32,000 nucleotides of DNA from Delftia acidovorans NBRC 14950 (lineage in GTDB: Bacteria > Pseudomonadota > Gammaproteobacteria > Burkholderiales > Burkholderiaceae_C). Under the pieces are notes generated by a model, which worked only from the letters and a program-made list of their open reading frames with translations, had not been told where the DNA came from and searched no databases. A program made the translations under genes and the position numbers. The DNA is taken from NCBI RefSeq assembly GCF_001598795.1, contig NZ_BCZP01000021.1, positions 30,001-62,000 on the forward strand. The letters run 5' to 3'. Shown here in pieces: positions 1,743 to 17,715 of this stretch. Each line of letters opens with the position of its first letter. The first letter of the stretch is position 1.

Positions 1743-1889
1743 GGCGCAGGGGGCCGCTAAATGGGGTTCGGTCCATCCTATCGCCATGAAACCGCTTGCC
1801 AAGGCCCGGGACGCGCTGGCGGGCAGCCGGCAGGCCCGCATACAGGAGATTGACCTACAGCGCGGCCTGCGGCGGGGAAGAGGCCGTCA

Positions 1890-3224: not shown

Positions 3225-3334
3225 GGTGCTTGTCTCCTTCAAGGCTTGGGGGGCGTGGGGCGGAACTTCCAGGGACCGGCCCGGCCTGCTGCTGCAGGCT
3301 CTGGTGCTATGTGCTGGATGGGGGGAAAGGGGGC

Positions 3335-4267
3335 TCAGAAGGCCACATTGGCCGCACCCTTGAGGCCCAGCATGCTGCGCGCCTCGTCAGGCGTGGCGAC
3401 GTCGACATTCAGGGCCTCGAGCACGGTGCGGATGCGGCGCACCTGCTCGGCGCTGGAGGTGGCCAGCTGCCCCGGGCCTATCCACAGAGAGTCTTCCAGC
3501 CCCACGCGCACATGCGAGCCCATGGCCGCGCCCATGGTGGCCAGCGGCAGCTGGTTGCGCCCGGCGCCCAGGATGGACCACTGGTAGTTGCTGCCCAGCA
3601 GGCGGTCGGCCGTGCGGCGCATGTGCATCAGGTCCTCCGGGTGGCCGCCGATGCCGCCCAGGATGCCGAACACCGACTGCACGAACACGGGCCCCTGCAC
3701 CAGCCCCCGGTCCACGAAATGCGCCAGGTTGTGCAGGTGGCTGATGTCGTAGCACTCGAACTCGAAGCGCGTGCCCTGGGCCTGGCCCAGGCGCAGGATG
3801 CCTTCGATATCGGCAAAGGTGTTCTTGAAGACCAGGTTGCGGCTGTTTTCCAGGTGCTCGCGCTCCCAGGCGTGTTCCAGGTTCTTGAAGCGCTCCAGCA
3901 TGGGGAACAGGCCGAAGTTCATCGAGCCCATGTTCAGCGAGGCCAGCTCGGGCTGGAACTCGGTCACGGGCCGCATGCGCTCTTGCACCGTCATGTGCGG
4001 GCTGCCGCCCGTGGTGATGTTGACGATGGCATCGCTTTCGGCCCGGATCGCCTTGAGAAAGGGGCGGAACAGCTCAGGGTCCTGCGAAGGGCGCCCGTCG
4101 CGGGGATCGCGGGCATGCAGGTGCACGATGGCGGCGCCGGCCTCGGCGGCATCGATGGCGGCGCGCGCAATCTGCTCGGCCGTCACGGGCAGGTGGGGCG
4201 ACATGCTGGGCGTGTGGATGGCGCCCGTGGGCGCGCAGGTGATGATGGCTTTGGTGCGGGTGGCCAT
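3335..4267 (-). CDS. BKACE family enzyme (3-keto-5-aminohexanoate cleavage enzyme-like, DUF849)
   Basis: ORF 3335..4282; ATG at 4267 (MATRTKAIITCAPTGAIHTPSMSPHLPVT...) is preceded by AAGGA. IITCAPTGA...P.TP.E, VHLHARDP.DGRPS, NITTGG and HVRVGLEDS are hallmark BKACE/DUF849 TIM-barrel motifs. Confidence 0.85.
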   Translation of the reverse strand: MATRTKAIITCAPTGAIHTPSMSPHLPVTAEQIARAAIDAAEAGAAIVHLHARDPRDGRPSQDPELFRPFLKAIRAESDAIVNITTGGSPHMTVQERMRPVTEFQPELASLNMGSMNFGLFPMLERFKNLEHAWEREHLENSRNLVFKNTFADIEGILRLGQAQGTRFEFECYDISHLHNLAHFVDRGLVQGPVFVQSVFGILGGIGGHPEDLMHMRRTADRLLGSNYQWSILGAGRNQLPLATMGAAMGSHVRVGLEDSLWIGPGQLATSSAEQVRRIRTVLEALNVDVATPDEARSMLGLKGAANVAF

Positions 4268-4321
4268 GGAAGGTCCTTGCAAACGGTGAAAAGGCGAGAG
4301 GAGTAGAGGAGGAGAGGGCGC

Positions 4322-5116
4322 TCAGCTCAGCGCCTGGGTCAGGCCATCGACGGCCAGCTCCTGGCCCGTGACATGGCCGGCCAGCGGGCTGGCGGCAAAC
4401 ACGGCCATGTTGGCAATGTCGCGCGCCGTGGCCATGCGGCCCAGCGCGGCCTGGTGCGTGTAGCTGCGCGTGACGTCCTCCAGCGGCATGCCGCGTGCCT
4501 GCGCCTTGGCGGCAATCACATCGCGGATGCGCGGGCCGTCCACGGCGCCCGGCAGGATGGCGTTCATCCGGATGCCGTCGGCGCCCAGCTCCAGTGCCAG
4601 CGACTTGGTCAGGCCGATCACGGCCCACTTGGACGCCGAATAGGCCGTGCGGCCCGGCATGCCCAGATGGCCTGCCGCCGAAGACAGGTTGACGATGGCC
4701 GCCTGCCGGCCCTCGCGTGCCGATTGCCGAAGCCGGGGCACGGCCAGCCGCGTGCACAGGAAGGCGCCGGTGATGTTCACATCCAGCGTGCGCTGCCAGT
4801 CGGCCAGGTCCAGCGTCTCCACCGCGCCCGTGGGGCCTGCCACCCCGGCGTTGTTGACGAGGATGTCCAGGCCGCCCAACTCGTTGTCCACGGCCTTGAA
4901 CAGGGCCTGCATCTGCAAGGCATCCGACACATCGGCAAGACGGCCGCTGGCGCCGGGCAGGGCGGCAGCCAGCGCATCCAGGCTGGCCTGGGCCACGTCA
5001 CAGACCATGACGCGCGCGCCGGCCTCGGCAAAGGCGCGGCTGATTTCCAGGCCGATTCCGGCGGCGCCCGCCGTCACCAGGACGCGCTGGCCGGCCAGAA
5101 GATCGTTTTTCCACAT
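4322..5116 (-). CDS. SDR family NAD(P)-dependent oxidoreductase
   Basis: ORF 4322..5197. ATG at 5116 (MWKNDLLAGQRVLVTAGAAGIGLEI...) follows GGAG. Has the Rossmann TAGAAGIG motif, NNAG, and the catalytic S...YSASK motif. Confidence 0.9.
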   Translation of the reverse strand: MWKNDLLAGQRVLVTAGAAGIGLEISRAFAEAGARVMVCDVAQASLDALAAALPGASGRLADVSDALQMQALFKAVDNELGGLDILVNNAGVAGPTGAVETLDLADWQRTLDVNITGAFLCTRLAVPRLRQSAREGRQAAIVNLSSAAGHLGMPGRTAYSASKWAVIGLTKSLALELGADGIRMNAILPGAVDGPRIRDVIAAKAQARGMPLEDVTRSYTHQAALGRMATARDIANMAVFAASPLAGHVTGQELAVDGLTQALS

Positions 5117-5178
5117 GCGGGGACTCCTTGGGAACTCAAACAAAGGTGAAAGGGATTCGGGTTGGGTTTGGATTTTGT

Positions 5179-5194
5179 ATCTGTGATCACAGAT
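5179..5194. promoter_or_regulatory. Perfect 16-bp palindrome ATCTGTGATCACAGAT in the divergent SDR/GntR intergenic region; candidate GntR(FadR-type) operator
   Basis: Read directly: atctgtgatcacagat equals its own reverse complement. It contains the GT-N-AC core typical of GntR-family operators. It lies between SDR start 5116 and GntR start 5255. Confidence 0.6.
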
Positions 5195-5254
5195 CAAATA
5201 TGGTGAATACCCTATGCGCCATGACAGCGGCGGCGCCGCGCTACCATCGCCGCC

Positions 5255-6010
5255 ATGGCCATCAACGAACTAGTCACCCCACTCAAACGCCAGACCCTCA
5301 GCAGCGATGTCTATGCACAGCTCAGGGAATTGCTGATCACGGGCCAGATGATTCCGGGCGAGCAGATCTCCCTGCGCACCACGGCCAGCGCGCTGGGCGT
5401 CAGCGTCATGCCCGTGCGCGAGGCCGTGCACCGGCTGGTGGCCGAGCAGGCGCTGGAACTCACGCCCAACCGCGCGCTGCGCGTGCCGTTGATGACGGAA
5501 AGCGCCTTCCGCGAGATCACGCGCATCCGCGTCAACCTCGAAGGCCTGGCCACGGAGCAGGCGGCCCGGCAACTGCCGGCCGCCGAGCTGGAACGCATCG
5601 CCGCACTGCAGGACCGCTTTGCGGCCGAGATGGCCAGCGCCTCGCCGGACGGCGCGCGGCTCATCGCCTTCAACAAGGATTTCCACTTCGCCGTCTACAG
5701 CGCGGCCGGCATGCCCATGCTGCTGCAGATGATCGAGGCGCTGTGGCTTCGCATAGGTCCCATCCTCAACCACGACATGCGCTCGGGCTCGCGCCGCGTG
5801 AGCGAACAGGTGGCGGTCGGCCACCATGCGCGCCTGGTCGAGGCCCTGCGCCGCGGCGATGCGCCAGCCGCGAAGGAGGCGCTGCGCGGCGACATCGAAA
5901 GCGCGGCCGACTACATCGTTTCGGCGGGCGTGCTGGTGACGGCGGACAGCGGGTTGAACGGCGTGAGTGGACTGAGCGGGCCAGCCTTGCCAGGTGAAGA
6001 AAGCCGGTGA
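5255..6010 (+). CDS. GntR family transcriptional regulator (FadR/FCD subfamily)
   Basis: N-terminal wHTH (SDVYAQLRELLITGQMIPGEQISLRTTASALGVSVMPVREAVHRLVAEQAL). C-terminal all-helical FCD-like domain (FHFAVY..., HHARLVEALRRGDA). Divergent from the catabolic operon. Confidence 0.85.
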   Translation: MAINELVTPLKRQTLSSDVYAQLRELLITGQMIPGEQISLRTTASALGVSVMPVREAVHRLVAEQALELTPNRALRVPLMTESAFREITRIRVNLEGLATEQAARQLPAAELERIAALQDRFAAEMASASPDGARLIAFNKDFHFAVYSAAGMPMLLQMIEALWLRIGPILNHDMRSGSRRVSEQVAVGHHARLVEALRRGDAPAAKEALRGDIESAADYIVSAGVLVTADSGLNGVSGLSGPALPGEESR

Positions 6011-6074
6011 GCCGCAGAGGAATGGAGTAAGGAAGTAAGATTTCCGTGTTTTCTCTCATTTGCAGGAGCCGGCC

Positions 6075-6302
6075 ATGCTTGCCAAATTGACGTCGAAGAA
6101 CCAGATCACCCTGCCCAAGGCCGTGGTGTCCGAGGTGGAGGCCGCAGAGTATTTCGAGGTGGCCGTGGAAAACGGCCGCATCGTGCTCACGCCTGTGCAC
6201 GTGCAGCGTGTCCAGCGCGCACAGGCCGTCCGCGACAAGCTGCAGCAGATGGGCATCACCGAAGAGGATGTGCAGGAGGCCACCTCCTGGGCGCGCAAAT
6301 GA
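6075..6302 (+). CDS. AbrB/MazE/SpoVT-family antitoxin
   Basis: ORF 6060..6302 (track start is TTG). ATG at 6075 lies 7 nt after AGGAG. MLAKLTSKNQITLPKAVVSEV is the swapped-hairpin AbrB-type DNA-binding motif. The stop overlaps the toxin start (ATGA at 6299-6302). Confidence 0.75.
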   Translation: MLAKLTSKNQITLPKAVVSEVEAAEYFEVAVENGRIVLTPVHVQRVQRAQAVRDKLQQMGITEEDVQEATSWARK

Positions 6303-6715
6303 TGCGTGTCGTCCTGGACACCAACGTCGTGCTCTCGGCATTGCTGTTCACGTCCGGCCGTCTTGCGTGGATACGCCGGGCCTGGCAGCACCAGCAGTTG
6401 AAGCCCCTGGTCTGCAGGGAAACGGCCAGCGAATTGCTGCGTGTGCTCGCCTACCCGAAGTTCAAGCTGTCAACGGCCGAGCAACAGGCCTTGCTGGAGG
6501 ATTTCCTGCCCTGGGCCGATGTCGTCACACTGCCGCAGCCCTGGCCTGCATTGCCGCTGTGCCGGGACGACAAGGACCAGGTGTTCCTGGTGCTGGCGCA
6601 TGTGGGCCGGGCCCGGGCGCTCATCACCGGCGACGGCGACCTTCTGGCGCTGCGTGACAGCTTTCCCGGCCTGATCGTGACGCCCGATGAGTGGGCAGCG
6701 CTGCACAAGCGCTGA
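6299..6715 (+). CDS. PIN-domain toxin (PIN_3 / TIGR00305-like putative TA toxin)
   Basis: MMRVVLDTNVVLSALL..., with conserved acidic residues in DTN, ETASEL, DDKD and TGDGDL. 138 aa. 4-nt overlap with the upstream antitoxin. Confidence 0.8.
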   Translation: MMRVVLDTNVVLSALLFTSGRLAWIRRAWQHQQLKPLVCRETASELLRVLAYPKFKLSTAEQQALLEDFLPWADVVTLPQPWPALPLCRDDKDQVFLVLAHVGRARALITGDGDLLALRDSFPGLIVTPDEWAALHKR

Positions 6716-6727
6716 GGGCAGGAATCC

Positions 6728-7645
6728 ATGCACAACGCCCACGACCCCAAGGTTCTTCCCATACGCGACGGCGTCAGCCCCAGCTGCGTGGTGCTGCCCA
6801 GCCAGGGCGGCGGGTTGCTGATCGATTTTCTGGCCGAGCGCCTGCCGGCCGTGGCGCGCGAGGACTGGCTGCGGCGCCTGGCGCTGCGCGAGGTGGTGGA
6901 CGAGCATGGCCGCGCCGCCGATGCAGGCACGGCCTTTGCGCCGGGCCTGCGTTACTACTACTACCGCGAGCTGCAGGCCGAGCCGCCCATCCCCTTCGAG
7001 GCCGAAGTCATCCACCGCGACGCGCATCTGCTGGTGGCCGACAAGCCGCATTTCCTGCCCGTGGTGCCGGCCGGCAAGTACCTGCAGCAGACGCTGCTGG
7101 TGCGGCTCAAGCGCGAATTCGACCTGCCCGAGCTGTCGCCCATCCACCGCATAGACCGCGACACGGCGGGGCTGGTGGTGTTTTCGGTGCAGCGCGCCAC
7201 GCGCGGCATCTACCAGGCGCTGTTCCGCGACCGCGCCATCCACAAGACCTACGAGGCCGTGGCCCCCTGGCGCGAGGACGTGGTTTTCCCGCGCACGCAT
7301 GAAAGCCGCATGGAAGAAAGCGGCCATTTCTTTCGCATGCACGAGGTGGCCGGCACGCCCAACACCCGCACCCACATGCAGGTGGTGGAGCAGCACGGCC
7401 GCTGGGCGCGCTACCGGCTGGAGCCCGAAAGCGGCAAGCGCCACCAGTTGCGCGTGCACATGGCCGCCCTGAGCCTGCCGCTGTGGGGTGACGGCTTCTA
7501 CCCTGAAGTGCATGACATGCCCGAGGGCGACTACTCGCGCCCGCTGCAGCTGCTGGCGCGCAGCCTGGCCTTCACCGATCCTCTGGACGGCCAGTCGCGG
7601 CGCTTTGACAGCCGCCGCCAGTTGCTGCCGCTGACCGACCTGTAG
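6728..7645 (+). CDS. RluA-family pseudouridine synthase
   Basis: HLLVADKPHFLPV, the catalytic-Asp motif HRIDRDTAGLVVF, KTYEAV and GKRHQLRVHMA are RluA-family signatures. Starts 13 nt after the PIN gene, behind GAGGGCAGGAA. Confidence 0.85.
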   Translation: MHNAHDPKVLPIRDGVSPSCVVLPSQGGGLLIDFLAERLPAVAREDWLRRLALREVVDEHGRAADAGTAFAPGLRYYYYRELQAEPPIPFEAEVIHRDAHLLVADKPHFLPVVPAGKYLQQTLLVRLKREFDLPELSPIHRIDRDTAGLVVFSVQRATRGIYQALFRDRAIHKTYEAVAPWREDVVFPRTHESRMEESGHFFRMHEVAGTPNTRTHMQVVEQHGRWARYRLEPESGKRHQLRVHMAALSLPLWGDGFYPEVHDMPEGDYSRPLQLLARSLAFTDPLDGQSRRFDSRRQLLPLTDL

Positions 7646-7712
7646 AGGCCTTGCCGCTGCTGGAAACCGCTGGCTTTTTTGTCCATGGCCTTGCCATGGG
7701 ATAGGCCGGTTG

Positions 7713-7750
7713 CGGACATTTAACGGACAACTTTGTCCGATAATTGTCCG
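7713..7750. promoter_or_regulatory. Nested inverted repeat with four CGGACA/TGTCCG half-sites; candidate TetR operator
   Basis: CGGACA at 7713-7718 and 7724-7729; TGTCCG at 7734-7739 and 7745-7750. Both pairs are symmetric about 7731.5. Ends 1 nt before the TetR ATG (7752). Confidence 0.6.
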
Positions 7751-7751
7751 C

Positions 7752-8300
7752 ATGACTTCCAAAAGACCCAGTGCCGATATCCGCCGCGCCCAGCTGCTGG
7801 ACGCGGCCGATGCCGTGTTTTCCGAGCATGGCGTGACCGCGCCGCTGGACCTGGTGGTCGAGCGCGCCGAGGTCGGCCGCGCCACGCTGTACCGGCAGTT
7901 TCCTGACCGGCGTGCGCTGATGCTGGCGCTGCTGGAGCGTTCGCTGGACAACATGCGCAGCGCGGCCGAAGCCATGGCCGAGGATGACGATGCCTTCTAC
8001 AAGCTGCTGTCGCGCCTGGCCGAGCGCATTGCGGTCTCGGCCCCCATCACCGATTACTGGCGCACCGTGGAGCGCGGCGACGAGGTCATCGCCCAGGCCC
8101 GCGTTGCCATGTGGCAGATCTTTCGGCCGGCCATGGACCGGGCCGTGGCCTGTGGCCATTGCCGCCAGCCGCTGACGCAGGCCGAGCTGTCCCTGGTCTT
8201 CGGCATGCTGGGCGCCTCGCTGCGCGGCGAGACGCCGCAGCAGCGGCGCACCCTGGCGCGCAAGGCGTTGCAGATCGTCTGGCAAGGCTTGAAGGCCTGA
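7752..8300 (+). CDS. TetR/AcrR family transcriptional regulator (of the downstream efflux operon)
   Basis: ORF 7710..8300; in-frame ATG at 7752 (MTSKRPSADIRRAQLLDAADAVFSEHGVTAPLDLVVERAEVGRATLYRQFPDRRAL) gives a canonical TetR N-terminal HTH. The stop is 1 nt before the MFS ATG. Confidence 0.85.
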   Translation: MTSKRPSADIRRAQLLDAADAVFSEHGVTAPLDLVVERAEVGRATLYRQFPDRRALMLALLERSLDNMRSAAEAMAEDDDAFYKLLSRLAERIAVSAPITDYWRTVERGDEVIAQARVAMWQIFRPAMDRAVACGHCRQPLTQAELSLVFGMLGASLRGETPQQRRTLARKALQIVWQGLKA

Positions 8301-8301
8301 C

Positions 8302-10077
8302 ATGGCCACCACACCCACTCCACCGGGGCCCGTGCTGCCCCCGTCGCCCCCCGTCGTCTACCTCAAGCCCCCGCCGGACTGGGAAGAGCATGAAAAGCCC
8401 AGCCTGCCGGGCTCGCCGTCCATGCCGCTGCACCAGCCGGCCGTGCGCGCCGCCTATGGCCTGATCGCCGTGCTGGTGGCGCTGACGGGTGGCCTGGGCA
8501 ATGCACTGTTCACGGCCAACCTGCCCACCATCCAGGGCCAGATGGGGCTGACGTCTTCCGAGGCCGCCTGGCTGACCGGCGCCTACGTCATGCTCAACAT
8601 GACGGCCAACCTGCTGGTCTACAAATTCCGCCAGCAGTTCGGCATGCGGCTGTTCGCCGAGATCGGGCTGGGCCTGTATGCGCTGCTGACGCTGCTGCAC
8701 CTGGTGCTGGGCAGCTACACCAGCCTGCTCATGCTGCGCGCGGCCAGCGGCCTGGCGGGCGCCACCTGCAGCACGCTGGGCACGCTCTACATGCTGCAGG
8801 CTGCGCCGCGCAAGCATGTGCTCAAGATGCTGGTGATCGGCGTGGGGCTGGGGCAGATCGCCACGCCGCTGGCCTGGATCCTTTCGCCGGGCCTGCTGTT
8901 CAACAGCGAGTGGCACAACCTCTATCTGTTCGAGGCCGGCCTGGCCCTGATCTCGTTCGCGGGCGTGGTGGTGCTCAAGCTGCCGCCGGGCGTGCACATC
9001 CGCAGCTTCGAGCGGCTGGACTTCCTGACCTTCTTCCTCATGGTGCCCGGCGTGGGCCTGCTGATCGCCGTGCTGGTGCAGGGCTACAACCACTGGTGGC
9101 TGGACACGCCCTGGCTGGCCTGGATGCTGATCGGCTCCATCGTCCTGCTGAGCGTGGCGCTGTACATCGAGCACCACCGCCGCAATCCCATGCTGCAGAC
9201 GCGCTGGTTCGTGCTGGCGCCCACGGTGCGCTTCGTGATCGGTGCGCTGCTGCTGCGCTTTCTGACCACCGAGCAGACCTATGGCGTGATCGGCATGCAG
9301 CGCATGCTGGGCATGACGGTGGACCAGATGCAGCCGCTGTTCATCGTCATCCTGCTGGGCACCATCGCGGGCATTGCCGTGTCGGCGCTGACCTTCGGGC
9401 TGGAGAACATGGGCAAGCAGATCGTGGGCTCCATCGTGCTGTTCGCGCTGGCGGCCTGGCTGGACCACAGCCGCACCAGCCTGGCCCGGCCCGAGGACTT
9501 CTTCGGCAGCCAGTTCCTCATGGCCGTGGGCGCGGGCCTGTTCATGGGGCCGCTGATGCTGATCGGCGTGGTGCAGGGCCTGAAGTTCGGCGCGCACTAC
9601 ATGCTGACGGCCATCGTCACCATCTCCATGACGCAGGCCATGGGCGCGCTCATGGGCTCGGCCCTGCTGAGCACCTACCAGATGCACCGCGAGCAGGTGT
9701 ATTCGGCCGCCATCGTGGCCGATGTCGATCCCACCGACCCCATCGTGGCCGACCGCCTGCGCCTGCAGCAGCAAAGCCTGGCCCGCGTCATCGCCGACCC
9801 GGCCCTGCGTGCGGCCCAGGGCACGGCCCAGCTGGCGCAGGCCGCACGCCGCGAGGCCAATGTGCGCGCCTACAACGACGTGTTCGCGCTCACGGCCGGC
9901 GTGGCCGTGCTCTACCTGCTGTGGATGCTGGCCCTGGCCGGCCGCGCACGCCAGCGCGCCTTCGTGGAGCGCATGCGCGCCGCCGCTGCCGATGCCTCGG
10001 CCATGCGCGGCACCGATGCCGCCGCGCCGCAGGACGCGCCGGGCCAGCCGCCCACCCAACCCGTCGCCCGCGCCTGA
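8302..10077 (+). CDS. MFS efflux transporter (DHA2/EmrB-like inner-membrane component of a tripartite pump), 591 aa
   Basis: Multiple hydrophobic helices throughout. Context is TetR, MFS, HlyD, OMF. Has a proline-rich N-terminus and a roughly 130-aa C-terminal extension with one more hydrophobic helix. Confidence 0.75.
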   Translation: MATTPTPPGPVLPPSPPVVYLKPPPDWEEHEKPSLPGSPSMPLHQPAVRAAYGLIAVLVALTGGLGNALFTANLPTIQGQMGLTSSEAAWLTGAYVMLNMTANLLVYKFRQQFGMRLFAEIGLGLYALLTLLHLVLGSYTSLLMLRAASGLAGATCSTLGTLYMLQAAPRKHVLKMLVIGVGLGQIATPLAWILSPGLLFNSEWHNLYLFEAGLALISFAGVVVLKLPPGVHIRSFERLDFLTFFLMVPGVGLLIAVLVQGYNHWWLDTPWLAWMLIGSIVLLSVALYIEHHRRNPMLQTRWFVLAPTVRFVIGALLLRFLTTEQTYGVIGMQRMLGMTVDQMQPLFIVILLGTIAGIAVSALTFGLENMGKQIVGSIVLFALAAWLDHSRTSLARPEDFFGSQFLMAVGAGLFMGPLMLIGVVQGLKFGAHYMLTAIVTISMTQAMGALMGSALLSTYQMHREQVYSAAIVADVDPTDPIVADRLRLQQQSLARVIADPALRAAQGTAQLAQAARREANVRAYNDVFALTAGVAVLYLLWMLALAGRARQRAFVERMRAAAADASAMRGTDAAAPQDAPGQPPTQPVARA

Positions 10078-10106
10078 AACCGTTCGCCCAGAGAAAAGAC
10101 AACAAC

Positions 10107-11312
10107 ATGAGTGACTCCGAAAATTCCAATGGCGGCACGGCCGCCTCTGCCTCGCCTGCGCCGGCTCCCGCTGCGGCGCCTTCGCCCTCGCCATCACCTT
10201 CGCCATCGCCCAAGCTCATCAAACCCTCGCTGCGCAGCGTGCTGGTGATGCTGGTGGTCGCACTGGCCGGCGTGCTGCTGGTGCTGCGTGCATGGAACCT
10301 GTTCCCCTTCGCGGGCACCGTGGTCAGCACCGACAACGCCTATGTGCGCGGCGCCGTCACCGTGCTCGCGCCCCAGGTCAGCGGCTATGTGACCGAGGTG
10401 CTGGTGCAGGACTACGAGAACGTCAAGGCCGGCCAGCCCCTGGTGCGCATCGACGCACGCACCTACGAAGCCGCCCAGGCCCAGGCGCAGGCCCAGCTGG
10501 CCAATGCCCGCGCACAGCTGGCCAATGCCGACCAGACCCAGGCCCAGAACCGCGCCACGCTGGGCGCCAGCCGCGCCGGCCTGGCGGCGGCGCAGGCCGA
10601 ATCCGACCGTGCGGCAGCCGAGCTGCAGCGCGTGCAGGCGCTGTCCGAGCGCGGCTCCGTCTCGCTCAACGAGCGCGACAAGGTGCGTGCCACCGCGCGC
10701 CTGGCGGCCACCAACGTGGCCAAGGCCCAGGCCGACATCGAAATCAACGCCCAGAAGATCAAGGCGACGACGGTGAACCGCGCCTCGCTCGAAGCCCAGG
10801 TCCAGATGGCCGAGGCCCAGCTGCGCCAGGCCCAGATCAACCTGGACAACACCGTGGTGCACGCGCCCGGCGATGGCCAGGTCAGCGAGGTGGGCGTGCG
10901 CCGGGGCCAGTACGTCACGGCCGGCTCCCAGCTCATGTACGTGGTGCCGCACACGCTGTGGGTGGTGGCCAACTTCAAGGAAACCCAGACCGCCCAGGTG
11001 CGCATAGGCCAGGCTGTGCGCTTCAGCGTTGATGCGCTGGGCGGCGCCCACCTCACGGGCCGCGTGCTGGAGATCGCGCCCGCCACGGGCTCGGAATTCA
11101 GCGTGCTCAAGGCCGACAACGCCACGGGCAACTTCACCAAGGTCGTGCAGCGCTTGCCAGTCAAGATTGCAATCGATCCCGACCAGGAGCTGGCCGCCAG
11201 GCTGCGCGCGGGCATGTCGGTGGTGGTGCGGCTGGATACGGCGCAGCCTGAGACCCAACCCGCACAGCAACCCGCACAGCAGCCCGCACCCCAACCGGAG
11301 GCCCGCCCATGA
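10107..11312 (+). CDS. HlyD/EmrA-family membrane fusion (periplasmic adaptor) protein
   Basis: Track ORF 8910..11312 is an artefactual N-terminal extension. ATG at 10107 gives MSDSENS..., a single TM (LVMLVVALAGVLLVLRAW), then STDNAYVRG..V.V.PQVSGYV..V.V.D...V..GQPL..ID, a long coiled-coil and ...V.AP.DG.V (EmrA-type). Confidence 0.85.
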   Translation: MSDSENSNGGTAASASPAPAPAAAPSPSPSPSPSPKLIKPSLRSVLVMLVVALAGVLLVLRAWNLFPFAGTVVSTDNAYVRGAVTVLAPQVSGYVTEVLVQDYENVKAGQPLVRIDARTYEAAQAQAQAQLANARAQLANADQTQAQNRATLGASRAGLAAAQAESDRAAAELQRVQALSERGSVSLNERDKVRATARLAATNVAKAQADIEINAQKIKATTVNRASLEAQVQMAEAQLRQAQINLDNTVVHAPGDGQVSEVGVRRGQYVTAGSQLMYVVPHTLWVVANFKETQTAQVRIGQAVRFSVDALGGAHLTGRVLEIAPATGSEFSVLKADNATGNFTKVVQRLPVKIAIDPDQELAARLRAGMSVVVRLDTAQPETQPAQQPAQQPAPQPEARP

Positions 11313-12715
11313 CCGCCCGCGCACTGGCCATGGCCATCGCCTGCGCCGCCGCGCTGGCCGGCTGCAGCGTGCCGCCGCTGAGCAACGCGCCTGAAGCGGC
11401 TCGGCCCGCCATGCCCGCCCAGTGGAGCGGGGCAGGGCAGGAGCCGGCCGCCGCCGTCCAGGCATCGTGGTGGCAGGCCTTTGGCGATCCGCTGCTCACG
11501 CGCTGGGTGGAACTGGCCCAGTCCCGCAACAACGATGTGCTGCTGGCCCTGTCGCGCGTGGATGAGGCGCGGGCCAATCTGGATGTGGCAGGCGCTGCGG
11601 GCCTGCCCCAGCTCTCGGCCACGGCCGGCGTCTCCACGGGCCGCAGCCTGGGCGCGCGGGGCCTGGCGCACACGCGCTCGGTGCAGCCCAGCCTGCAGGC
11701 CAGCTGGGAGCCTGATCTGTGGGGCCGCATCGCCCACCTGGAAAAGGCCGCCGCCCTGCGCCTGCAGGCCAGCGAGGCCGACCGCGACGCCGTGGCACTG
11801 GCCGTGGCCGCCACCACGGCCCAGGCCTATGTGGGCCTGCGCTCGCTGCAATCGCAGCTGCAAGTGGCCCAGGCCACGGCCCGCTCGCGCGAACAGGCCC
11901 TGCGCCTGGCTGACGATCAGGCACGCGTCGGCTACACCTCGCAGCTGCAGCTCACCCAGGCCCAGGCCGAGCTGCAATCCGTGCAGCAGGCCGTGGAGCA
12001 GCTGGAACTGTCGCTGGCGCGCCAGCGCACGGCGCTCCTGCTGCTGGCCGGCGGCGAGGGTGACGAGCAGGCAGCCGCGCTCATGGCAACAACCGACGGC
12101 CAGTCCGCTGCGCTGGGCGCACCGCCGCCTGCGCCGGCCGCCGGCCTGCCTTCGGCCTTGCTGCAGCGCCGCCCCGACATTGCACGGGCCCAGCTGCAAC
12201 TGGCGGCCGCCGACGAAAGCTTGGCCGTGCAGCGCACCGCCTTCCTGCCCCAGGTCTCGCTGACGGCCAGCGCCGGCAGCCTGCTGGTCAACGCCCTGCA
12301 ATACCACCCGGCCACGGTCTGGGCCCTGGGCGGCAGCGTGCTGGCGCCGCTGTTCACGGGCGGCCGGCTGCAAGGGCAGTTCGACGCCGTGACCGCCCAG
12401 CGCGACCAGGCCGCCTATGCCTACCGTGGCGTGGTGATCAAGGCCCTGGCCGATGTGGAAAACGCCCTGGTCGGCACCCGGCGCCTGCAGTCGCAGTGGC
12501 AGCACGCCAGCGAGCGCGAGGCGGTGCTGCAGCGCTCCCTGGGCTTTGCCAAGGACCGCTACGAGGCCGGCTACGCCAGCTACCTGGAAGAGCTGGACGC
12601 CCAGCGCAATCTCTTCCAGGCGCAGCAGGAGGTGATACGCCTGCGCCAGAGCCAGCTGGAAAACGCCATTGCGCTGTACCAGGCGCTGGGCGGCGGCTGG
12701 CAGGCCGGGGACTGA
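11309..12715 (+). CDS. Efflux transporter outer-membrane factor lipoprotein (NodT family)
   Basis: Lipobox LAGC in MTARALAMAIACAAALAGCSVPP. WWQAFGDP.L..WV...NND, paired TolC-like repeats, and a C-terminal LYQALGGGW motif. ATGA overlap with the HlyD stop. Confidence 0.9.
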   Translation: MTARALAMAIACAAALAGCSVPPLSNAPEAARPAMPAQWSGAGQEPAAAVQASWWQAFGDPLLTRWVELAQSRNNDVLLALSRVDEARANLDVAGAAGLPQLSATAGVSTGRSLGARGLAHTRSVQPSLQASWEPDLWGRIAHLEKAAALRLQASEADRDAVALAVAATTAQAYVGLRSLQSQLQVAQATARSREQALRLADDQARVGYTSQLQLTQAQAELQSVQQAVEQLELSLARQRTALLLLAGGEGDEQAAALMATTDGQSAALGAPPPAPAAGLPSALLQRRPDIARAQLQLAAADESLAVQRTAFLPQVSLTASAGSLLVNALQYHPATVWALGGSVLAPLFTGGRLQGQFDAVTAQRDQAAYAYRGVVIKALADVENALVGTRRLQSQWQHASEREAVLQRSLGFAKDRYEAGYASYLEELDAQRNLFQAQQEVIRLRQSQLENAIALYQALGGGWQAGD

Positions 12716-12760
12716 CCTTTCAGGAGCTGCTCCGGGCTGTGCTGGCCATGGCGGGATATG

Positions 12761-12779
12761 GCGCACTGGCCCAGTGCGC
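12761..12779. terminator. GC hairpin between convergent genes (GCGCACTG-gcc-CAGTGCGC)
   Basis: 8-bp perfect stem read directly, located between the OMF stop (12715) and the stop of the small minus-strand gene (12782). No U-tract, so its function as a terminator is uncertain. Confidence 0.35.
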
Positions 12780-12781
12780 AG

Positions 12782-13072
12782 TCAGCCGGACACAAGCGCA
12801 TATATCACCATGACGGCGAGAGCCCAAAACAGAAGTGTGCCGAACAGCTTGGTGGATGCGATGGCTGCGGCCAGTAGCGCCGCGCCCATTGCGAGTCCGG
12901 CGTGCTGTGTCTTGTACCAGCAGTAGAGGCCGGTAGCAGCACCCGCGAAAAATGCGATCAACCCACGGTCTGCCCCCGGGCTTGCGAGACTTTGCTTGCA
13001 GTCGTGATCGGGTGGCAGCGTGCCGGTGGAGCTTATCGTTCGGCCGCATTTGTTACAGGTCCATTGCGTCAT
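12782..13072 (-). CDS. Small membrane protein (96 aa): N-terminal CxxC/HxC zinc-ribbon-like segment plus about 3 TM helices; no recognised family
   Basis: Track ORF 12782..13276. The internal ATG at 13072 (MTQWTCNKCGRTISSTGTLPPDHDCKQ...) forms an ATGA overlap with the stop of the upstream gene (13069-13072 reads tcat on the plus strand). Hydrophobic segments: GLIAFFAGAATGLYCWY, AGLAMGAALLAAAIAS, LFGTLLFWALAVMVIYALV. Confidence 0.55.
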   Translation of the reverse strand: MTQWTCNKCGRTISSTGTLPPDHDCKQSLASPGADRGLIAFFAGAATGLYCWYKTQHAGLAMGAALLAAAIASTKLFGTLLFWALAVMVIYALVSG

Positions 13073-14274
13073 TGCGGGTTTCTCCCGGCCGATTGCCTTG
13101 CGTTGCTGCGCACCCAGTTCCTTGCCTCCTGAGGCGAGAGGCCTGGGGGCATGGGGGCTGCAGGAAGGGGCGCCATTCCAGGACTTGATGGCAAGGGTTG
13201 CGCTGTGCCGGTGACGGGGTGCCGGGCCATCAGGCTGCGGCGCAGCGCAAGCGCGGCCTTGTCGCTGGGCGGGCATTCCTTGATGGCCTGGTCACCGATG
13301 AAGCGCAGCACTCCCTTAGGGTCCCGCGCGAGCATGGCCGGGATGTCTTCCGGTGCCTTCGCATACCAGAAGCCATAGGTGGCATAGCTTTTGACACCGC
13401 TGGAGTTCAATTTAGGCCCATAGGTGCATTGCAGGGTTTGATGGCCTTTGTTCCCGGTTTCAACCATCCAGTGATACACATCGCCTTCGGCCAGACCGTG
13501 GAGATCGACGGCGGAGAGGCGTTGCCGCTGTTGCTCGAACAGCCGTGCGCCACCATCGGGTGCAGTGGCGGCCTGCACATCCCTGGTGGCGGCTGCCTGC
13601 GCCTGCTGTTCCTGGCCCATGCCGAGCTGGATTTCCTGTCGGTCTCTGAGCCGTTTGTACGCCTGGTAGGTCGAATCGTTGGCCTGCAGTGCCTGTTGCA
13701 AGCGGTCGGGCTGAAGTGCCGCCATCGCCATCTGGCCGTCTCGCGCCGCTCCCAGCGAAGCCCTGATGCCTCTGACCCAGCTTTCAAAGGCCGCACGGCC
13801 ATCCGATGGGATGCCGTTGTCCAAAGCGCCCCCTGTCACGCGCTCCAGTCCCTTGACGATGGATATATTTCGTTCCGAAAAGCCTTCGTTGAGGTAGAGC
13901 GTGAGGAAGTAGAGATCCTTTTCCAGCAGCAGCTTGGCGAACTCCGCTTCCGCCTTGGCTCTGGTGCCTGGCGTCCGGGCTGTTTCAAGAAAGCCCTGAC
14001 GTGCTTTGGCGATCCTGCGGTTGAACTCGGACTTGTTCTTCGTAGCCTGTTGCTGGGCCGCCAGTGCATTGGTCAGATCCTCGCGGATCACGTCCCCGAT
14101 CGTGACCCTGCCCACCCAAGTGGTTTGCGCGTGACAGGCGTGCGCGAAAGCGATTGCGGCGGCGGCCAAAGCCACGGTTGCGCCGTGCTGCCACCGGCCG
14201 CCGGGAGCCGGCTCGCGTATTGGGGTGGCAACTCGCCAGGTGCCACCAGATTGAAAGAAGGAGTCAACCTGCAT
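13069..14274 (-). CDS. Hypothetical exported protein (about 401 aa from ATG 14274; the track starts at TTG 14391), no recognisable domain
   Basis: ATG at 14274 follows GAGAGGGG. A signal-peptide-like stretch ATVALAAAAIAFAHACHA-QT follows a long N-region. The N-half is helical and charged, and the C-half holds two Cys (LQCTYGPK, IKECPPSDK) and a Pro-rich tail. Codon usage is atypical for the window (many A/T-ending codons). The start codon is uncertain. Confidence 0.55.
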   Translation of the reverse strand: MQVDSFFQSGGTWRVATPIREPAPGGRWQHGATVALAAAAIAFAHACHAQTTWVGRVTIGDVIREDLTNALAAQQQATKNKSEFNRRIAKARQGFLETARTPGTRAKAEAEFAKLLLEKDLYFLTLYLNEGFSERNISIVKGLERVTGGALDNGIPSDGRAAFESWVRGIRASLGAARDGQMAMAALQPDRLQQALQANDSTYQAYKRLRDRQEIQLGMGQEQQAQAAATRDVQAATAPDGGARLFEQQRQRLSAVDLHGLAEGDVYHWMVETGNKGHQTLQCTYGPKLNSSGVKSYATYGFWYAKAPEDIPAMLARDPKGVLRFIGDQAIKECPPSDKAALALRRSLMARHPVTGTAQPLPSSPGMAPLPAAPMPPGLSPQEARNWVRSNARQSAGRNPQ

Positions 14275-14514
14275 GTAGCGCCCCTCTCTTGGGTGTGCTT
14301 TCGAAACGTAGCGGCTTGCAGTAGCCTGCCTCGCACCCCTTGGGTGTGCAGGCTCTGCCGGGATTTCAGCATCCGCCACGAGGACCGGCAATCCCGCGAA
14401 TGGTGTCTCCTTTTGTAAATGGTGGCCCTGGCAAGACCCTTCAACTCTGCGACAACGCAGCCATTGGGCAGGGAGTGGGTCGTGTGGTGCATTGATCCTG
14501 ATGGGCTGAAGACA

Positions 14515-17500
14515 CTAGGTTTTCTCGATGCGCGCAGGCAGGCCCTGGCGCACCGCGGCGCCCGACACCCAGTCCACCCACACGTTTTTGCAGCCGGGCC
14601 GCGTGGGATCGGCAAAGCCCAGGTCGTTGAGGTTCACGCCATTGGCATGCTCGGCGTTCACCGGCATGGGCTTGCCGTCAATGCTGTGGCGGCCTGCGCC
14701 CAGCTCGCGGTGGCCGTAGCCGTGCTCGATGGCCACGGTCCCCGGCATCACGCCGTCGCGCACCATGGCCACGGCCGTCACCGCGCCGCCCGGCGTGCGG
14801 ATGCGCACCGTGTCCCCGTTGGCGATGCCCAGCCGCTCGGCGTCATCGCGGTGCAGGGACACCGGGTTGTGCGGATGCACCTGGCGCAGCCGCGAGACGG
14901 CAATCGACATGGAACTCATCAGGTTGGACTTGTACGAGGTCAGCAGCAGCGGCCATTGCTGCTCGCCGAAATGCGTGCGCATGGCGCTGCCGTCGGCCAG
15001 CCGCGCCGGGTACCAGGTGGGGCAGCCGCTGTAGCGCTCGCCCGTCATGGCGTGGCGCATGCGGGCCAGCTCCTCGCTCCACACTTGCAGGGCAGGCGCG
15101 TGGGCCTTGCGGGTGTGGCCGTCCTTCCAGGCGTCTTCGATGCGGTCGAAGCGCCCGCCGCGCGTCAGCAGCATGGCCACCTGGCGCCATTCATCGTCCT
15201 TCAGGCGCTGGCGCAGCGCGGGCACCAGCCTGTCCACGCCGGTGATGGCGATGTCGTCATCGCTGGCCGCCGGCACGGGCTTGCCGCCTGCCCAGGCCAC
15301 GTTGGCCAGGGCATGGATGAAGAAGTCCTCGGCCGAGCGCAGCGCATGGGGCTGGCCCTGGGCGTCCTTGATGGCGGCCTCGCCAAAGCCGGGCAGGCCC
15401 AGCCGTTCTGCCACGGCGAAGAGGAAGCTCTCCACGTTCACGGGCTGGCCGCCGGCCGTGCGCGCCACGGCGGGCTGCACCACGGGCCAGCGCACGGTGG
15501 AGCTTTTGGCCACCACGTCGGCCCAGGGCGCCGAGATGCCCCAGCTCTCGTAGGTCACGGTATCGGGCACGATGAAATCGGCCAGCGCGCTGGTCTCGTT
15601 GATGAAGGGGTCGATGGAGACGATCAGCGGCAGCTTCTTCGGGTCCTTGAGATCGTCCACCAGCGCATTGCGAAAGCCCGCAATGCCGTAGACGGGGTTG
15701 CTCATGTGGTTGATCCAGGCCTTGGCGCGGTAGGGGTAGCCGGCCAGCGCGCTGGCCAGCATCTCGCTGGACAGGCCGCCCACGGCCGGGTACCACGGGG
15801 CCTGGGCGGCGGGGTAGTCCTTCGCGCCCTCTGGCTGGCCCTCGCGCTTGCGCTGGAATTCCGCGCTTTTCTCGTAGGGCTGGCGGTGGCGTGACAGCGC
15901 CAGGCCGCGCGGCTTGACCTTGCCGTCGAAGTTGGCGAAGTCGTAGCGCGGGCCGGGGCCGAAGGGGCCGAACGGGCCGGCATCCAGCACCAGGCCGCCC
16001 TGCACGTTGAGGTTGCCCACCAGGGTGTTGAGCATGCTGATGGCGTAGGCGGTGTAGAAGCCCGCGCCGCTCATGGTGCCGCCATGCGCATCGGCCACGG
16101 CGCGCTTGCCATGGCTGGTGAACTCGCGCGCCAGCGCCTCGATCTCGCCGCGCGCCACGCCGCACAGCGCCGCGTATTCGTCCAGTGTCTTGAGGCTGGC
16201 CTGCTCATGCAGCTTGGCCAGCGAGGAGCAGACCGACAGCTCGGGGGCCTGGTCCGCGCCTTCGGCCTTCAGGCCGGGCACGGCCACGCGGGTGCGCACC
16301 ATCAGCTGTGCAGGCTCGGCCTGGGTGTGCGGCGCCAGGCTGCCATCGGCACGCTGCACCACGAACACGTCCTGGGCCGGCTTGCCGTCTTCGGCTGGCG
16401 CGGGCAGGGCCCAGCCCAGGTCGGCGCCGCGCAGAAAGCTGCCATGGCGCGGGTGGCCGTGCTCGTTGACCAGCAGGTGCGTGGCATTGCTCCAGGACGC
16501 CTCGCCCGCCGCCTGCATGGCGGCCGGGCCGGGCTGGGCGAGAAAGTCCGTGTCATGGCGCGCCTCGTCCAGGATGACGCGGATCAGCGCCATGACCAGG
16601 GCCAGGTCGCTGGCCGGCTTGACGGCCAGCCAGCGGTTGCCGCTGCCCGCAGCCAGGCTGGACGAGGTCGGCAGCACGGGCGAGACCACCACGTAGCGGA
16701 AACGGTTGTCCTCGCGCGAGCGGGCCTCGGCCAGTTCGCGGCCCTGGCGCTGGAAGGGGTTGCCGGACTGCGCGGGCGCCGCGCCGATGAACAGGCCGAA
16801 GCTGGCATGGCTCCAGTCCGGCTTGCCGTGCGGCATGCCGGGCAGGTCGCCCAGGGCCGCTGCCGCGCCCACGCGAAAACTCTGGCCGCAGTAGGCGCCG
16901 TGGTTGCTGACGTTCACGGTGCCGAAGGACGGCCCCGCAAAGCGGCGCAGCAGCTGGGCGCGGCCTTCGTTGGAGGCGTCGGTCACCAGCAACTGGTTGG
17001 AGCGCGGGCCGAACTCGGGGTTGTCGGCGTCCAGCGGCGTCCTGGGGTCCCAGATGGCGCGCAGGCCCTCGACCTGGCCTTCGCCGAACAGATCGCCGCC
17101 CTCGCAGACTTCCTGCACCAGCTGCTCGAAGGAAATGCTCTGCCAGCGGCCGCTGCCGCGCGGGCCCACGCGCTTGAGCGGGGTGAGCACGCGGTGCGGC
17201 GCACTCTGGTGCTCCAGCATGGACGATCCGCGCGCGCAGGCCGTGGCCCGGCCCTCCAGGCCCAGTTCCTTGCCCAGTTTGGCGTAGACCTCGCGCACGG
17301 GTTCGTCCATGGCCGCTGGCCGCGTGGTGGCCAGCGGGTGGTAGGGGTTGCCTGCCACGCGCAGGATGCGGTTGCTGGCGGTATCGACACGCACGCGCAC
17401 GCCGCACTGCGTCCAGCAGCCCAGGCAGCTGGAGGGGCTGACCACCTGGCCGGGCTGGGTGGCGAGCGCGCCCGTGGCCGGGTCGATGCGGAACTCCGGC

Positions 17501-17715
17501 GTCAGCGAATTGCCGCGCGTGGCGCTGGCTGTGGGCGTGCCCGAGGTGCCTGCGACCAGGCCCTTGGCACCGCGCGCCAGTGTTTCACCGTAGCCGGCCG
17601 CAAAGGCGGCCAGCCCACCGGCGGTGAGGCCACCGCGCAGCAGCAGGCGGCGGCGGGCGGCCTCGGCATCCAGGGAATCTTCGGGAGCTTGGGGGAGTTT
17701 CTTCTTGTCGGTCAT
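14515..17715 (-). CDS. ttrA: Molybdopterin (Mo-bisPGD) oxidoreductase catalytic subunit, tetrathionate reductase TtrA-like, 1066 aa
   Basis: Twin-arginine signal (EAARRRLLLRGGLTAGGLAAFAAG). N-terminal FeS motif C-x2-C-x3-C (SCLGCWTQC). The size matches TtrA (about 1020 aa) rather than PhsA/PsrA (about 760 aa). Gene order B-C-A as in Salmonella ttrBCA. Confidence 0.7.
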   Translation of the reverse strand: MTDKKKLPQAPEDSLDAEAARRRLLLRGGLTAGGLAAFAAGYGETLARGAKGLVAGTSGTPTASATRGNSLTPEFRIDPATGALATQPGQVVSPSSCLGCWTQCGVRVRVDTASNRILRVAGNPYHPLATTRPAAMDEPVREVYAKLGKELGLEGRATACARGSSMLEHQSAPHRVLTPLKRVGPRGSGRWQSISFEQLVQEVCEGGDLFGEGQVEGLRAIWDPRTPLDADNPEFGPRSNQLLVTDASNEGRAQLLRRFAGPSFGTVNVSNHGAYCGQSFRVGAAAALGDLPGMPHGKPDWSHASFGLFIGAAPAQSGNPFQRQGRELAEARSREDNRFRYVVVSPVLPTSSSLAAGSGNRWLAVKPASDLALVMALIRVILDEARHDTDFLAQPGPAAMQAAGEASWSNATHLLVNEHGHPRHGSFLRGADLGWALPAPAEDGKPAQDVFVVQRADGSLAPHTQAEPAQLMVRTRVAVPGLKAEGADQAPELSVCSSLAKLHEQASLKTLDEYAALCGVARGEIEALAREFTSHGKRAVADAHGGTMSGAGFYTAYAISMLNTLVGNLNVQGGLVLDAGPFGPFGPGPRYDFANFDGKVKPRGLALSRHRQPYEKSAEFQRKREGQPEGAKDYPAAQAPWYPAVGGLSSEMLASALAGYPYRAKAWINHMSNPVYGIAGFRNALVDDLKDPKKLPLIVSIDPFINETSALADFIVPDTVTYESWGISAPWADVVAKSSTVRWPVVQPAVARTAGGQPVNVESFLFAVAERLGLPGFGEAAIKDAQGQPHALRSAEDFFIHALANVAWAGGKPVPAASDDDIAITGVDRLVPALRQRLKDDEWRQVAMLLTRGGRFDRIEDAWKDGHTRKAHAPALQVWSEELARMRHAMTGERYSGCPTWYPARLADGSAMRTHFGEQQWPLLLTSYKSNLMSSMSIAVSRLRQVHPHNPVSLHRDDAERLGIANGDTVRIRTPGGAVTAVAMVRDGVMPGTVAIEHGYGHRELGAGRHSIDGKPMPVNAEHANGVNLNDLGFADPTRPGCKNVWVDWVSGAAVRQGLPARIEKT

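Follow-up and report, generated by a model that had tools for sequence, protein, structure and literature searches.

A Horizontally Acquired 1.8-kb Segment Carrying a Gene for a Predicted Exported Protein between Two Convergent Operons of Delftia acidovorans

The DNA analyzed here, termed the window, is a 32,000-nucleotide stretch of Delftia acidovorans NBRC 14950 (contig NZ_BCZP01000021.1, positions 30,001 to 62,000). Within it, a segment of low guanine-plus-cytosine (GC) content separates an efflux operon (TetR, EmrB-like, membrane-fusion EmrA, and NodT genes) from a ttrBCA-like operon. The segment carries a large gene for a predicted exported protein and, overlapping its 3' end, a small open reading frame (ORF) of 96 codons. 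An initial annotation, made from the sequence alone, had described the two as a horizontally acquired, low-GC, orphan two-gene cassette. Both minus-strand ORFs and their ATGA overlap are present as described. The segment contains the following features.

12707–14521, 1,815 bp: inserted segment, bounded by blastn against empty-site loci, by GC content, and by junction sequences
13069–14274, minus strand: large gene for a 401-residue, probably exported two-domain protein of an uncharacterized family (ORF, homologues, substitution ratios, and an AlphaFold model)
12782–13072, minus strand: small ORF of 96 codons, with a C-x2-C ... H-x-C pattern followed by three hydrophobic segments; a candidate gene
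13069–13072, minus strand: ATGA overlap of the large-gene stop codon with the small-ORF start codon, read from the sequence
13081–13086, minus strand: Shine-Dalgarno-like GGGAGA, 8 nt upstream of the small-ORF ATG
14275–14514, minus strand: 240-nt spacer from the ttrA stop codon to the large-gene start
12707–12781, minus strand: 3' trailer of the insert, with a 19-nt palindrome, GCGCACTGGGCCAGTGCGC, at 12761–12779 and no T-run

A Horizontally Acquired Segment at a Stop-to-Stop Junction

Where two convergent genes meet stop to stop, the segment takes the place of 39–63 bp of native sequence. When species-representative genomes were scanned with TtrA, two close relatives with an empty site emerged, Delftia tsuruhatensis NBRC 16741 (locus L014) and D. 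acidovorans MMO-42 (locus L015). In blastn comparisons with these loci, window positions 19000–14522 and 12707–9000 align, with a DNA identity on both flanks of 97–98% for L014 and 94–95% for L015. Where the window has positions 12708–14521, L014 has 63 bp and L015 has 39 bp, and the convergent ttrA and outer-membrane-factor genes of these genomes finish back to back (...GTCTGATCAG...). An otherwise collinear locus is thus empty in both relatives, and the genes are not conserved at this site throughout Delftia. Because two close genomes hold only 39–63 bp at the same junction, positions 12707–14521 are a horizontally acquired insertion, as had been proposed, and the atypical composition of the segment agrees with this assignment.

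The GC content of the insert is 0.623 versus 0.697 for the rest of the window, which makes it the minimum among 1.8-kb stretches of the 32 kb. At third codon positions, the GC content (GC3) is 0.714 in the large gene and 0.680 in the small ORF, compared with 0.80–0.94 in the other coding stretches of the window (23 stretches, one of them out of frame and left out of this range). The hand counts of G+C behind the initial annotation are exact (37, 27, 41, and 30 for the four 60-nt lines of 13801–14040, or 56.3%; 45 at 15001 and 47 at 12001), and its remark on frequent A/T-ending codons holds. The 56% value is a local minimum; the dip across the insert amounts to ~7 points in GC and 15–20 points in GC3.

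The three insert-bearing Delftia loci compared by sequence (L012, L027, and L029) have exactly the same junctions, and the large gene and the small ORF are found as a pair at the same site in L012 and L027–L034. Synonymous divergence (dS) is 0.027–0.037 within the insert versus 0.049–0.054 for ttrA, the same order and somewhat lower. Most simply, a Delftia sub-lineage acquired the segment once and has since passed it on vertically.

A tRNA gene was not found in the window, nor were inverted or direct repeats at the insert termini (12707 and 14521), nor a mobility gene in the insert, whose ORF list shows just the large gene and the small ORF. In the absence of these three features, the insertion looks like the product of illegitimate recombination. 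The mobility signatures of islets (an integrase or transposase, flanking direct repeats, and a tRNA target) are thus missing; small islets need not carry them. The insert also lacks the attC-like imperfect inverted repeat of an integron cassette and the terminal inverted repeats with target duplication of a transposon passenger, and an Rfam scan of it gave zero matches. A 94-nt trailer sequence holding the palindrome folds no better than its shuffled versions (z = -0.56), and the palindrome has no second copy elsewhere in the window.

The Large Gene, Its Family, and Their Surroundings

The reading frame of the large gene is open from a TTG at 14391, with the ATG at 14274 as the likely start. 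GAGAGGGG lies ahead of this ATG, with which all 401-residue database entries begin. The ratio of nonsynonymous to synonymous substitution rates (dN/dS) of the large gene within Delftia is 0.18–0.28, compared with 0.11–0.13 for ttrA. The large gene is genuine and under purifying selection (dN/dS ~0.2), given homologues with 40–59% identity, 90 invariant alignment columns, ~400 clusters of relatives, this dN/dS range, and an AlphaFold model with a mean predicted local distance difference test (pLDDT) score of 85.1. Of the two genes in the initial annotation, the large one is therefore substantiated, and the small one is an ORF with supporting features rather than a demonstrated gene.

A crude consensus search of the 240-nt spacer found no sigma-70-like promoter and no intrinsic terminator. 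Upstream of the large-gene start, an 11-nt exact direct repeat, GCACACCCAAG, is present at 14288–14298 and 14339–14349, 51 nt apart. A 21-nt stretch of the leader (14335–14355) is 86% complementary to the codons of the mature N-terminus at 14104–14124, 210 nt downstream. The repeat and the complementarity could reflect a regulator site, pairing within the leader mRNA, or chance. On the opposite strand, a 406-codon ORF (13198–14418, plus strand) spans the whole large gene, with coinciding second codon positions, and the homologue at locus L001 has a similar antisense ORF of 301 codons. These are most likely the usual stop-poor antisense frames of GC-rich genes, though the Delftia one is unusually long for 62% GC.

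The encoded protein is divided as follows.

14125–14274, minus strand: putative N-terminal export signal, residues 1–50, with a long non-conserved n-region, the hydrophobic core ATVALAAAAIAFA, and a predicted cleavage site between CHA and QT
13567–14112, minus strand: all-helical N-domain, approximately residues 55–236 (secondary structure, pLDDT >90, and conservation)
13204–13566, minus strand: alpha/beta C-domain, approximately residues 237–357, with C283 (in C-T-Y-G-P) and C334 (in E-C-P)
13072–13203, minus strand: Pro-rich linker and basic C-terminal helix, residues 358–401 (low pLDDT at 358–380, helix at 381–397)

The N-terminal stretch contains R27 in its n-region and continues with ATVALAAAAIAFAHACHA, the core and small-x-small site, followed directly by QTTWVGRVTIGD, the conserved mature N-terminus. 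It ends ...FAHACHA ahead of QTTW, consistent with an A-x-A-type site for signal peptidase I. The signal was judged by eye and with a hydropathy script, and the cleavage site is placed by sequence pattern. An earlier reading of this region as a signal-like stretch ending AHA-Q was correct as to the hydrophobic stretch and the type of site; the residues themselves read CHA-Q. In all close homologues, the hydrophobic stretch ends at an A followed by Q, just ahead of a conserved W-x-G-x-x-T-I-G-D, and a hydrophobic N-terminus is found in 114 of the 144 family members that have the N-domain. The helical N-half, the Cys pair C283/C334 in the C-half, and the Pro-rich tail that had been noted are all borne out.

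Six residues (R92, K119, D152, G154, W166, and Y206) are each retained in at least 90% of 150 sequences, and C283 and C334 are invariant across 34 full-length relatives. The tails of the relatives are rich in Lys and Arg and, with a single exception, contain 0, 2, 4, or 6 Cys residues; such even counts fit an oxidizing compartment. The tail of the Delftia protein is one Cys-free basic helix. In many relatives (P0030, P0035, P0037, P0040, P0045, P0060, and P0067), the basic tail is extended by one to three repeats of ~40 residues each that are bounded by Cys (e.g., RC...GC). These repeats may be disulfide-closed helical hairpins; their motif was not matched to any known repeat.

The term orphan does not apply to this protein. 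A word-indexed homologue search returned six clusters at 40–99% identity, and the near-orphan status that this count implies was rejected as a sensitivity artifact: an exhaustive profile search of 1.84 billion representatives returned 400 proteins at E <= 1e-3, of which 175 reach E <= 1e-10 and 55 reach E <= 1e-30. The family count of ~400 refers to clusters at 50% identity. A second profile homologue search added one protein. Nearly all members are metagenomic and unnamed; cluster look-ups placed one in a metagenome-assembled genome of Rhodanobacter.

Separate hidden Markov models for residues 55–216 and 237–352 were run on 152 family sequences, of which 75 contain both domains, 69 the N-domain only, and 8 the C-domain only. 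As a rule, the N-domain begins ~35 residues from the N-terminus, following a hydrophobic stretch. More than 150 further C-terminal residues are present in 46 of the 69 N-domain-only proteins, and regions of the TctC-type binding protein, FG-GAP, or Sel1-like kind appear in longer relatives.

No significant profile match was found for the large protein, with best E values of 0.46 in Pfam, 0.025 in PADLOC, and 0.41 in PHROGs and no hit in NCBIfam, and 34 relatives gave no consistent match in Pfam, PADLOC, or PHROGs. These searches agree with the initial annotation, in which no domain was recognized in either protein. AlphaFold with 7 sequences gave a pLDDT of 65 and an uninformative Foldseek result. 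With 150 sequences, the pLDDT rises to 85.1 (mostly >90 at residues 80–350) with a predicted template modeling score of 0.67, and in the model a helical N-domain precedes an alpha/beta C-domain built of three strands and several helices, followed by a disordered linker rich in Pro and a final helix. Foldseek with this model found no match in PDB (best E 0.7, template modeling scores of 0.1–0.3) or BFVD (best E 0.2), so the structural check proposed with the initial annotation leaves the family unmatched. Profile searches of PDB sequences with the 7- and 150-sequence profiles gave nothing below E 0.2, and a literature search on accession numbers found no mention. By these searches, the large protein is a member of a sizable, putatively exported family that lacks a Pfam, NCBIfam, PADLOC, or PHROG model.

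Homologues with 59% identity (L001–L004 and L005–L010) lie at sites unrelated to the Delftia locus. In L001–L004, the homologue is found between tRNA-Ser(CGA) with a Na+-H+ exchanger gene and a convergent chemoreceptor (MCP) gene, which in L001 finishes 116 nt past the stop codon of the homologue. The L001 homologue occupies 6750–7958, 375 nt downstream of the tRNA gene (6284–6374). Its GC3 is 0.70 versus 0.85–0.94 in its flanks; the low GC3 and the tRNA gene suggest an independent horizontal acquisition in another, betaproteobacterial-looking contig. In L005–L010, the homologue is flanked by a GGDEF gene with a resolvase fragment and by an IS66-type transposase gene. A linkage to GGDEF genes was considered because one adjoins two homologues, but it was rejected: these neighbors share the GGDEF domain only.

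Among more distant members, that of L039 is near IS66 and Y1 transposases, HigBA, an AHH toxin module, and LemA/DUF2207, and that of L040 is within a DUF927-primase/AlpA island (128–11375) with MazE-PIN and ParD-zeta pairs. The L040 island is P4-like or satellite-type in look, with DUF927 primase fragments and a DnaG zinc ribbon. Its family member is followed by four small ORFs of unknown function (49, 96, 135, and 90 residues), none of which resembles the Delftia small ORF by eye. The contig of L035 mirrors itself about a center near 9500, with genes of 1374–9095 repeated inverted at 9958–16917. It holds two convergent copies of P0054 together with HipAB, two GreA/GreB-like genes, and many unknown small ORFs. 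The mirror is probably an assembly artifact or a large inverted duplication. An all-against-all BLAST of neighbor proteins (L005, L011, and L035–L038) revealed no shared neighbor. DNA similarity between lineages is limited to the part that codes for the mature protein; there is therefore no common element backbone. What recurs across lineages is the gene itself, in varied and often accessory surroundings, not a shared mobile element.

Interpretation and Competing Readings

The overall picture that we favor, with reasonably good confidence, is a single gain of foreign DNA with one genuine gene, coding for a stand-alone exported accessory protein. The ancestor of one Delftia sub-lineage gained ~1.8 kb of foreign DNA, most simply in a single illegitimate event, exactly at the back-to-back stop codons of the TetR/EmrB/EmrA/NodT-type efflux and ttrBCA-like operons. 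The event shows no integrase, transposase, terminal inverted repeats, or target duplication, and the insert was then inherited with its flanks. The large product would be exported via Sec, cleaved after CHA, and disulfide-bonded, and would reside in the periplasm or outside the cell. Because its homologues stand alone, it likely needs no partner for its action in the envelope or outside the cell. A ligand-binding or catalytic site could be formed by the conserved R, K, D, W, and Y residues of the N-domain, and the basic tail could tether the protein to an anionic envelope component. The gene would be dispensable accessory cargo (for a niche, competition, or protection) rather than a housekeeping gene, since relatives adjoin IS66 transposases, toxin-antitoxin pairs, an AHH module, a P4-like primase/AlpA island, and a tRNA gene. 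The Delftia copy may owe its transcription to read-through from ttrBCA, which the lack of promoter-like and terminator-like motifs in the spacer would permit, a weak indication. Our best guess for the large protein is thus a stand-alone envelope protein carried as accessory cargo.

Several points weigh against this picture. Export, the disulfide, and the cleavage site are read entirely from sequence patterns. An accessory role as a binding or enzymatic envelope factor is a guess drawn from conservation and ~8 neighborhoods, and read-through from ttrBCA is speculative, coming from a crude consensus scan. The neighborhoods of L038 and L045 are ordinary and chromosomal-looking. A pattern-based scan of 185,579 species-representative genomes returned no relative of the large protein, which reflects either the limited reach of the scan or a family nearly confined to uncultured organisms. 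The family is also absent from the plasmid, phage, and IMG/VR contigs searched, an ill fit with simple mobile-element cargo: tblastn with the large protein found none on plasmids or phages, tblastn of plasmids with a distant relative found none, and an IMG/VR scan gave 0 loci. A metagenome scan gave three loci.

The most substantial competing reading concerns the small ORF. The insert could be a single-gene islet whose 3' trailer happens to leave 96 codons open, with no functional product, a possibility that we rate at somewhat under even. Relatives of the small ORF are found only in Delftia and form one 90%-identity cluster among 5.8 billion clusters. Tblastn located none on plasmids, and none is present beside any large-gene homologue searched. 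An ORF of 96 codons from a fixed ATG arises by chance in this sequence with P ~0.14, and a second frame there stays open over 110 codons. The variants differ at four non-synonymous and two synonymous positions (omega 0.66, from six differences only), and the density of amino-acid polymorphism is higher than in the large gene by a factor of 2.7 (Fisher p = 0.04). On the other hand, the ATGA overlap is accompanied by GGGAGA at the right distance, GC3 in this frame (0.68) exceeds GC1 (0.56) and GC2 (0.57), and the ORF is intact in every haplotype and in eight protein variants. C6, C9, H23, and C25 are invariant in these eight variants, all of which are close members of one 90%-identity cluster; the differences fall in linker residues 28–33, in the first loop (Y53H), or are conservative within hydrophobic segments. 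The layout is also coherent, with the C6-x2-C9 ... H23-x-C25 knuckle and three hydrophobic segments (~37–52, 58–72, and 75–94) confirmed as initially described. On balance, we lean slightly toward the small ORF encoding a functional protein. Its product, if made, would be a small protein of the inner membrane bearing a CCHC knuckle on the cytoplasmic side.

The label Zn-ribbon-like is a fair description of the C-x2-C ... H-x-C pattern, but only sub-threshold matches stand behind it. The small ORF has no domain match in Pfam, NCBIfam, PADLOC, or PHROG, and zinc-ribbon models (Zn_ribbon_TiaS, zf-BED, and similar models, and the NCBIfam RCKP rubredoxin-like model) reach E values of 0.05–0.16 and 12–14 bits versus cut-offs of 20–45, over residues 1–18 with the first knuckle only; none spans both knuckles above threshold. 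The ORF recalls small zinc-ribbon or zinc-knuckle membrane proteins in its N-terminal knuckle followed by hydrophobic helices and in these weak first-knuckle matches. It differs in that its second knuckle is H-x-C rather than C-x2-C, its scores are far below thresholds, and its ligands are seen in one genus only.

Two further readings make the small ORF a partner of the large protein. In one, suggested as a possibility in the initial annotation, the large protein would be a Sec-exported envelope toxin with a trafficking N-domain and a toxic C-domain, and the translationally coupled small membrane protein would confer immunity. The ATGA overlap with its Shine-Dalgarno-like site, the joining of the N-domain to many different C-terminal regions in the fashion of polymorphic toxins, the usual lineage specificity of immunity genes, and the AHH toxin module near the L039 relative are in its favor. 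In the other, the large protein would sense a signal or bind a ligand in the periplasm, with the small Zn-knuckle membrane protein serving as its anti-sigma-like or transducer-like partner; a Cys/His knuckle with membrane helices recalls the layout of some membrane-anchored regulators, and diguanylate cyclase or chemoreceptor genes adjoin three homologues. Both are disfavored because the partner is missing at every homologue locus searched for it. No related or analogous small ORF lies beside the 40–59% identical homologues of L001–L004, L005–L010, or L011, and none resembling it was seen by eye among the neighbors of L039 and L040. The same C-domain, at 59% identity, thus stands without a downstream partner, as in L001, where the convergent MCP gene is 116 nt away, and in L005 and L011. 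Against the toxin reading in particular, no known toxin domain was detected, with no family or structural match for the large protein and no consistent family match in 34 relatives; the C-domain is among the better conserved parts rather than hypervariable, and the small ORF is under relaxed constraint. Against the signaling reading, the insert holds no sigma factor or regulator, the zinc anti-sigma motif H-x3-C-x2-C is not in the small-ORF sequence, and the neighboring GGDEF proteins have nothing beyond that domain in common. We regard the toxin-immunity arrangement as quite improbable and the signaling pair as more improbable still. Because the small ORF is confined to Delftia (together with the large gene in L012 and L027–L034) and absent beside the large-gene homologues searched for it, it is not a conserved partner of the large protein at these loci, and the pair is not a conserved module as the term two-gene cassette had implied. 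An ancestral segment that the two empty-site strains have since deleted is likewise very unlikely. At ttrA, the distances among the window, the L027 group, and the empty NBRC 16741 are all ~1.8–2.2%, which gives no clear branching order and would permit a deletion. However, MMO-42, at 4.6–4.9% in an outgroup position, is also empty, and both empty strains keep a longer, mutually homologous outer-membrane-factor tail and the same ttrA ending. The GC3 of the segment, 15–20 points below that of surrounding genes, and the same deficit of the nearest homologue against its own flanks in an unrelated contig also argue against an ancestral origin.

The favored single gain of one genuine gene leaves room for a more far-reaching version, in which the helical N-domain is a new class of extracytoplasmic enzyme or ligand-binding module, coupled in Delftia to a newly arisen Zn-knuckle membrane protein. 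We consider this version unlikely. It would mean that the N-domain (R92, K119, D152-x-G154, W166, and Y206), with a fold lacking a PDB counterpart, occurs in accessory regions of mostly uncultured Proteobacteria, and that the locus shows a young gene in the course of becoming coupled to an imported one.

The insert resembles strain-specific islets in its presence or absence among close strains, its atypical GC and GC3, its position between convergent genes, its hypothetical content, and its vertical inheritance after one event. It departs from them in lacking an integrase, tRNA gene, and direct repeat, and in overwriting the last codons and supplying the stop codons of both neighbors. Polymorphic toxin/immunity pairs share with this locus an N-terminal module with variable C-terminal regions and a small, overlapping, lineage-specific ORF. 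Here, however, there is no recognized toxin or pre-toxin domain, the same C-domain occurs elsewhere without a downstream gene, and the putative immunity ORF has no relatives outside Delftia and is under weak constraint. The large protein is also similar to DUF-type extracytoplasmic families, with its predicted signal peptide, conserved Cys pairs, modular domains, and hundreds of unannotated members, except that its family has no Pfam or NCBIfam model and its predicted structure has no Foldseek match (best E 0.7 in PDB and 0.2 in BFVD).

As a genome feature, a small acquired islet of hypothetical genes is ordinary, and it has no bearing on a long-standing open question. Its value lies in a cleanly bounded insertion with empty-site controls, in which the stop codons of two flanking operons have been rewritten. 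It also points to an apparently exported family of ~400 clusters with no curated model, a confidently predicted structure without a known relative, and two domains that also occur independently. The ORF that overlaps the large gene, restricted to Delftia, is a candidate for a young or de novo gene. A metagenomic variant, P0024, from a 21,012-bp contig, joins the C-terminal part of the large protein to the small ORF in one product of 228 residues. The fusion arises via a frameshift in the Pro-rich tail and is either a natural allele or an error of sequencing or assembly.

Flanking Genes and Their Rewritten 3' Ends

The genes on either side of the insert are as follows.

14515–17715, minus strand: TtrA-like molybdopterin oxidoreductase, with its final two codons and stop codon from the insert
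11309–12715, plus strand: NodT-family outer-membrane efflux subunit, with its low-complexity C-terminal tail shortened by the insert

The TtrA-like protein scores 1353 bits versus an equivalog cut-off of 1750, and its neighbor has its best match to TtrC, likewise under the cut-off. The efflux genes are overlapped, in other frames or on the opposite strand, by several ORFs that reach 767 codons (e.g., 10463–12766, minus strand). Long overlapping ORFs are typical of DNA with 70–75% GC, and ORF length alone is weak evidence in this window. The altered 3' end of ttrA (14515–14526) changes the terminus of its product from EKV at empty sites to EKT in the window. The altered end of the NodT-family gene (12695–12720) gives a terminus of ...GGWQAGD in the window versus ...GGWQAATTPVAAPVAAPVASPAR in the empty-site strain, with the loss of a repetitive tail of ~10–18 residues rich in Ala, Pro, Val, and Thr.

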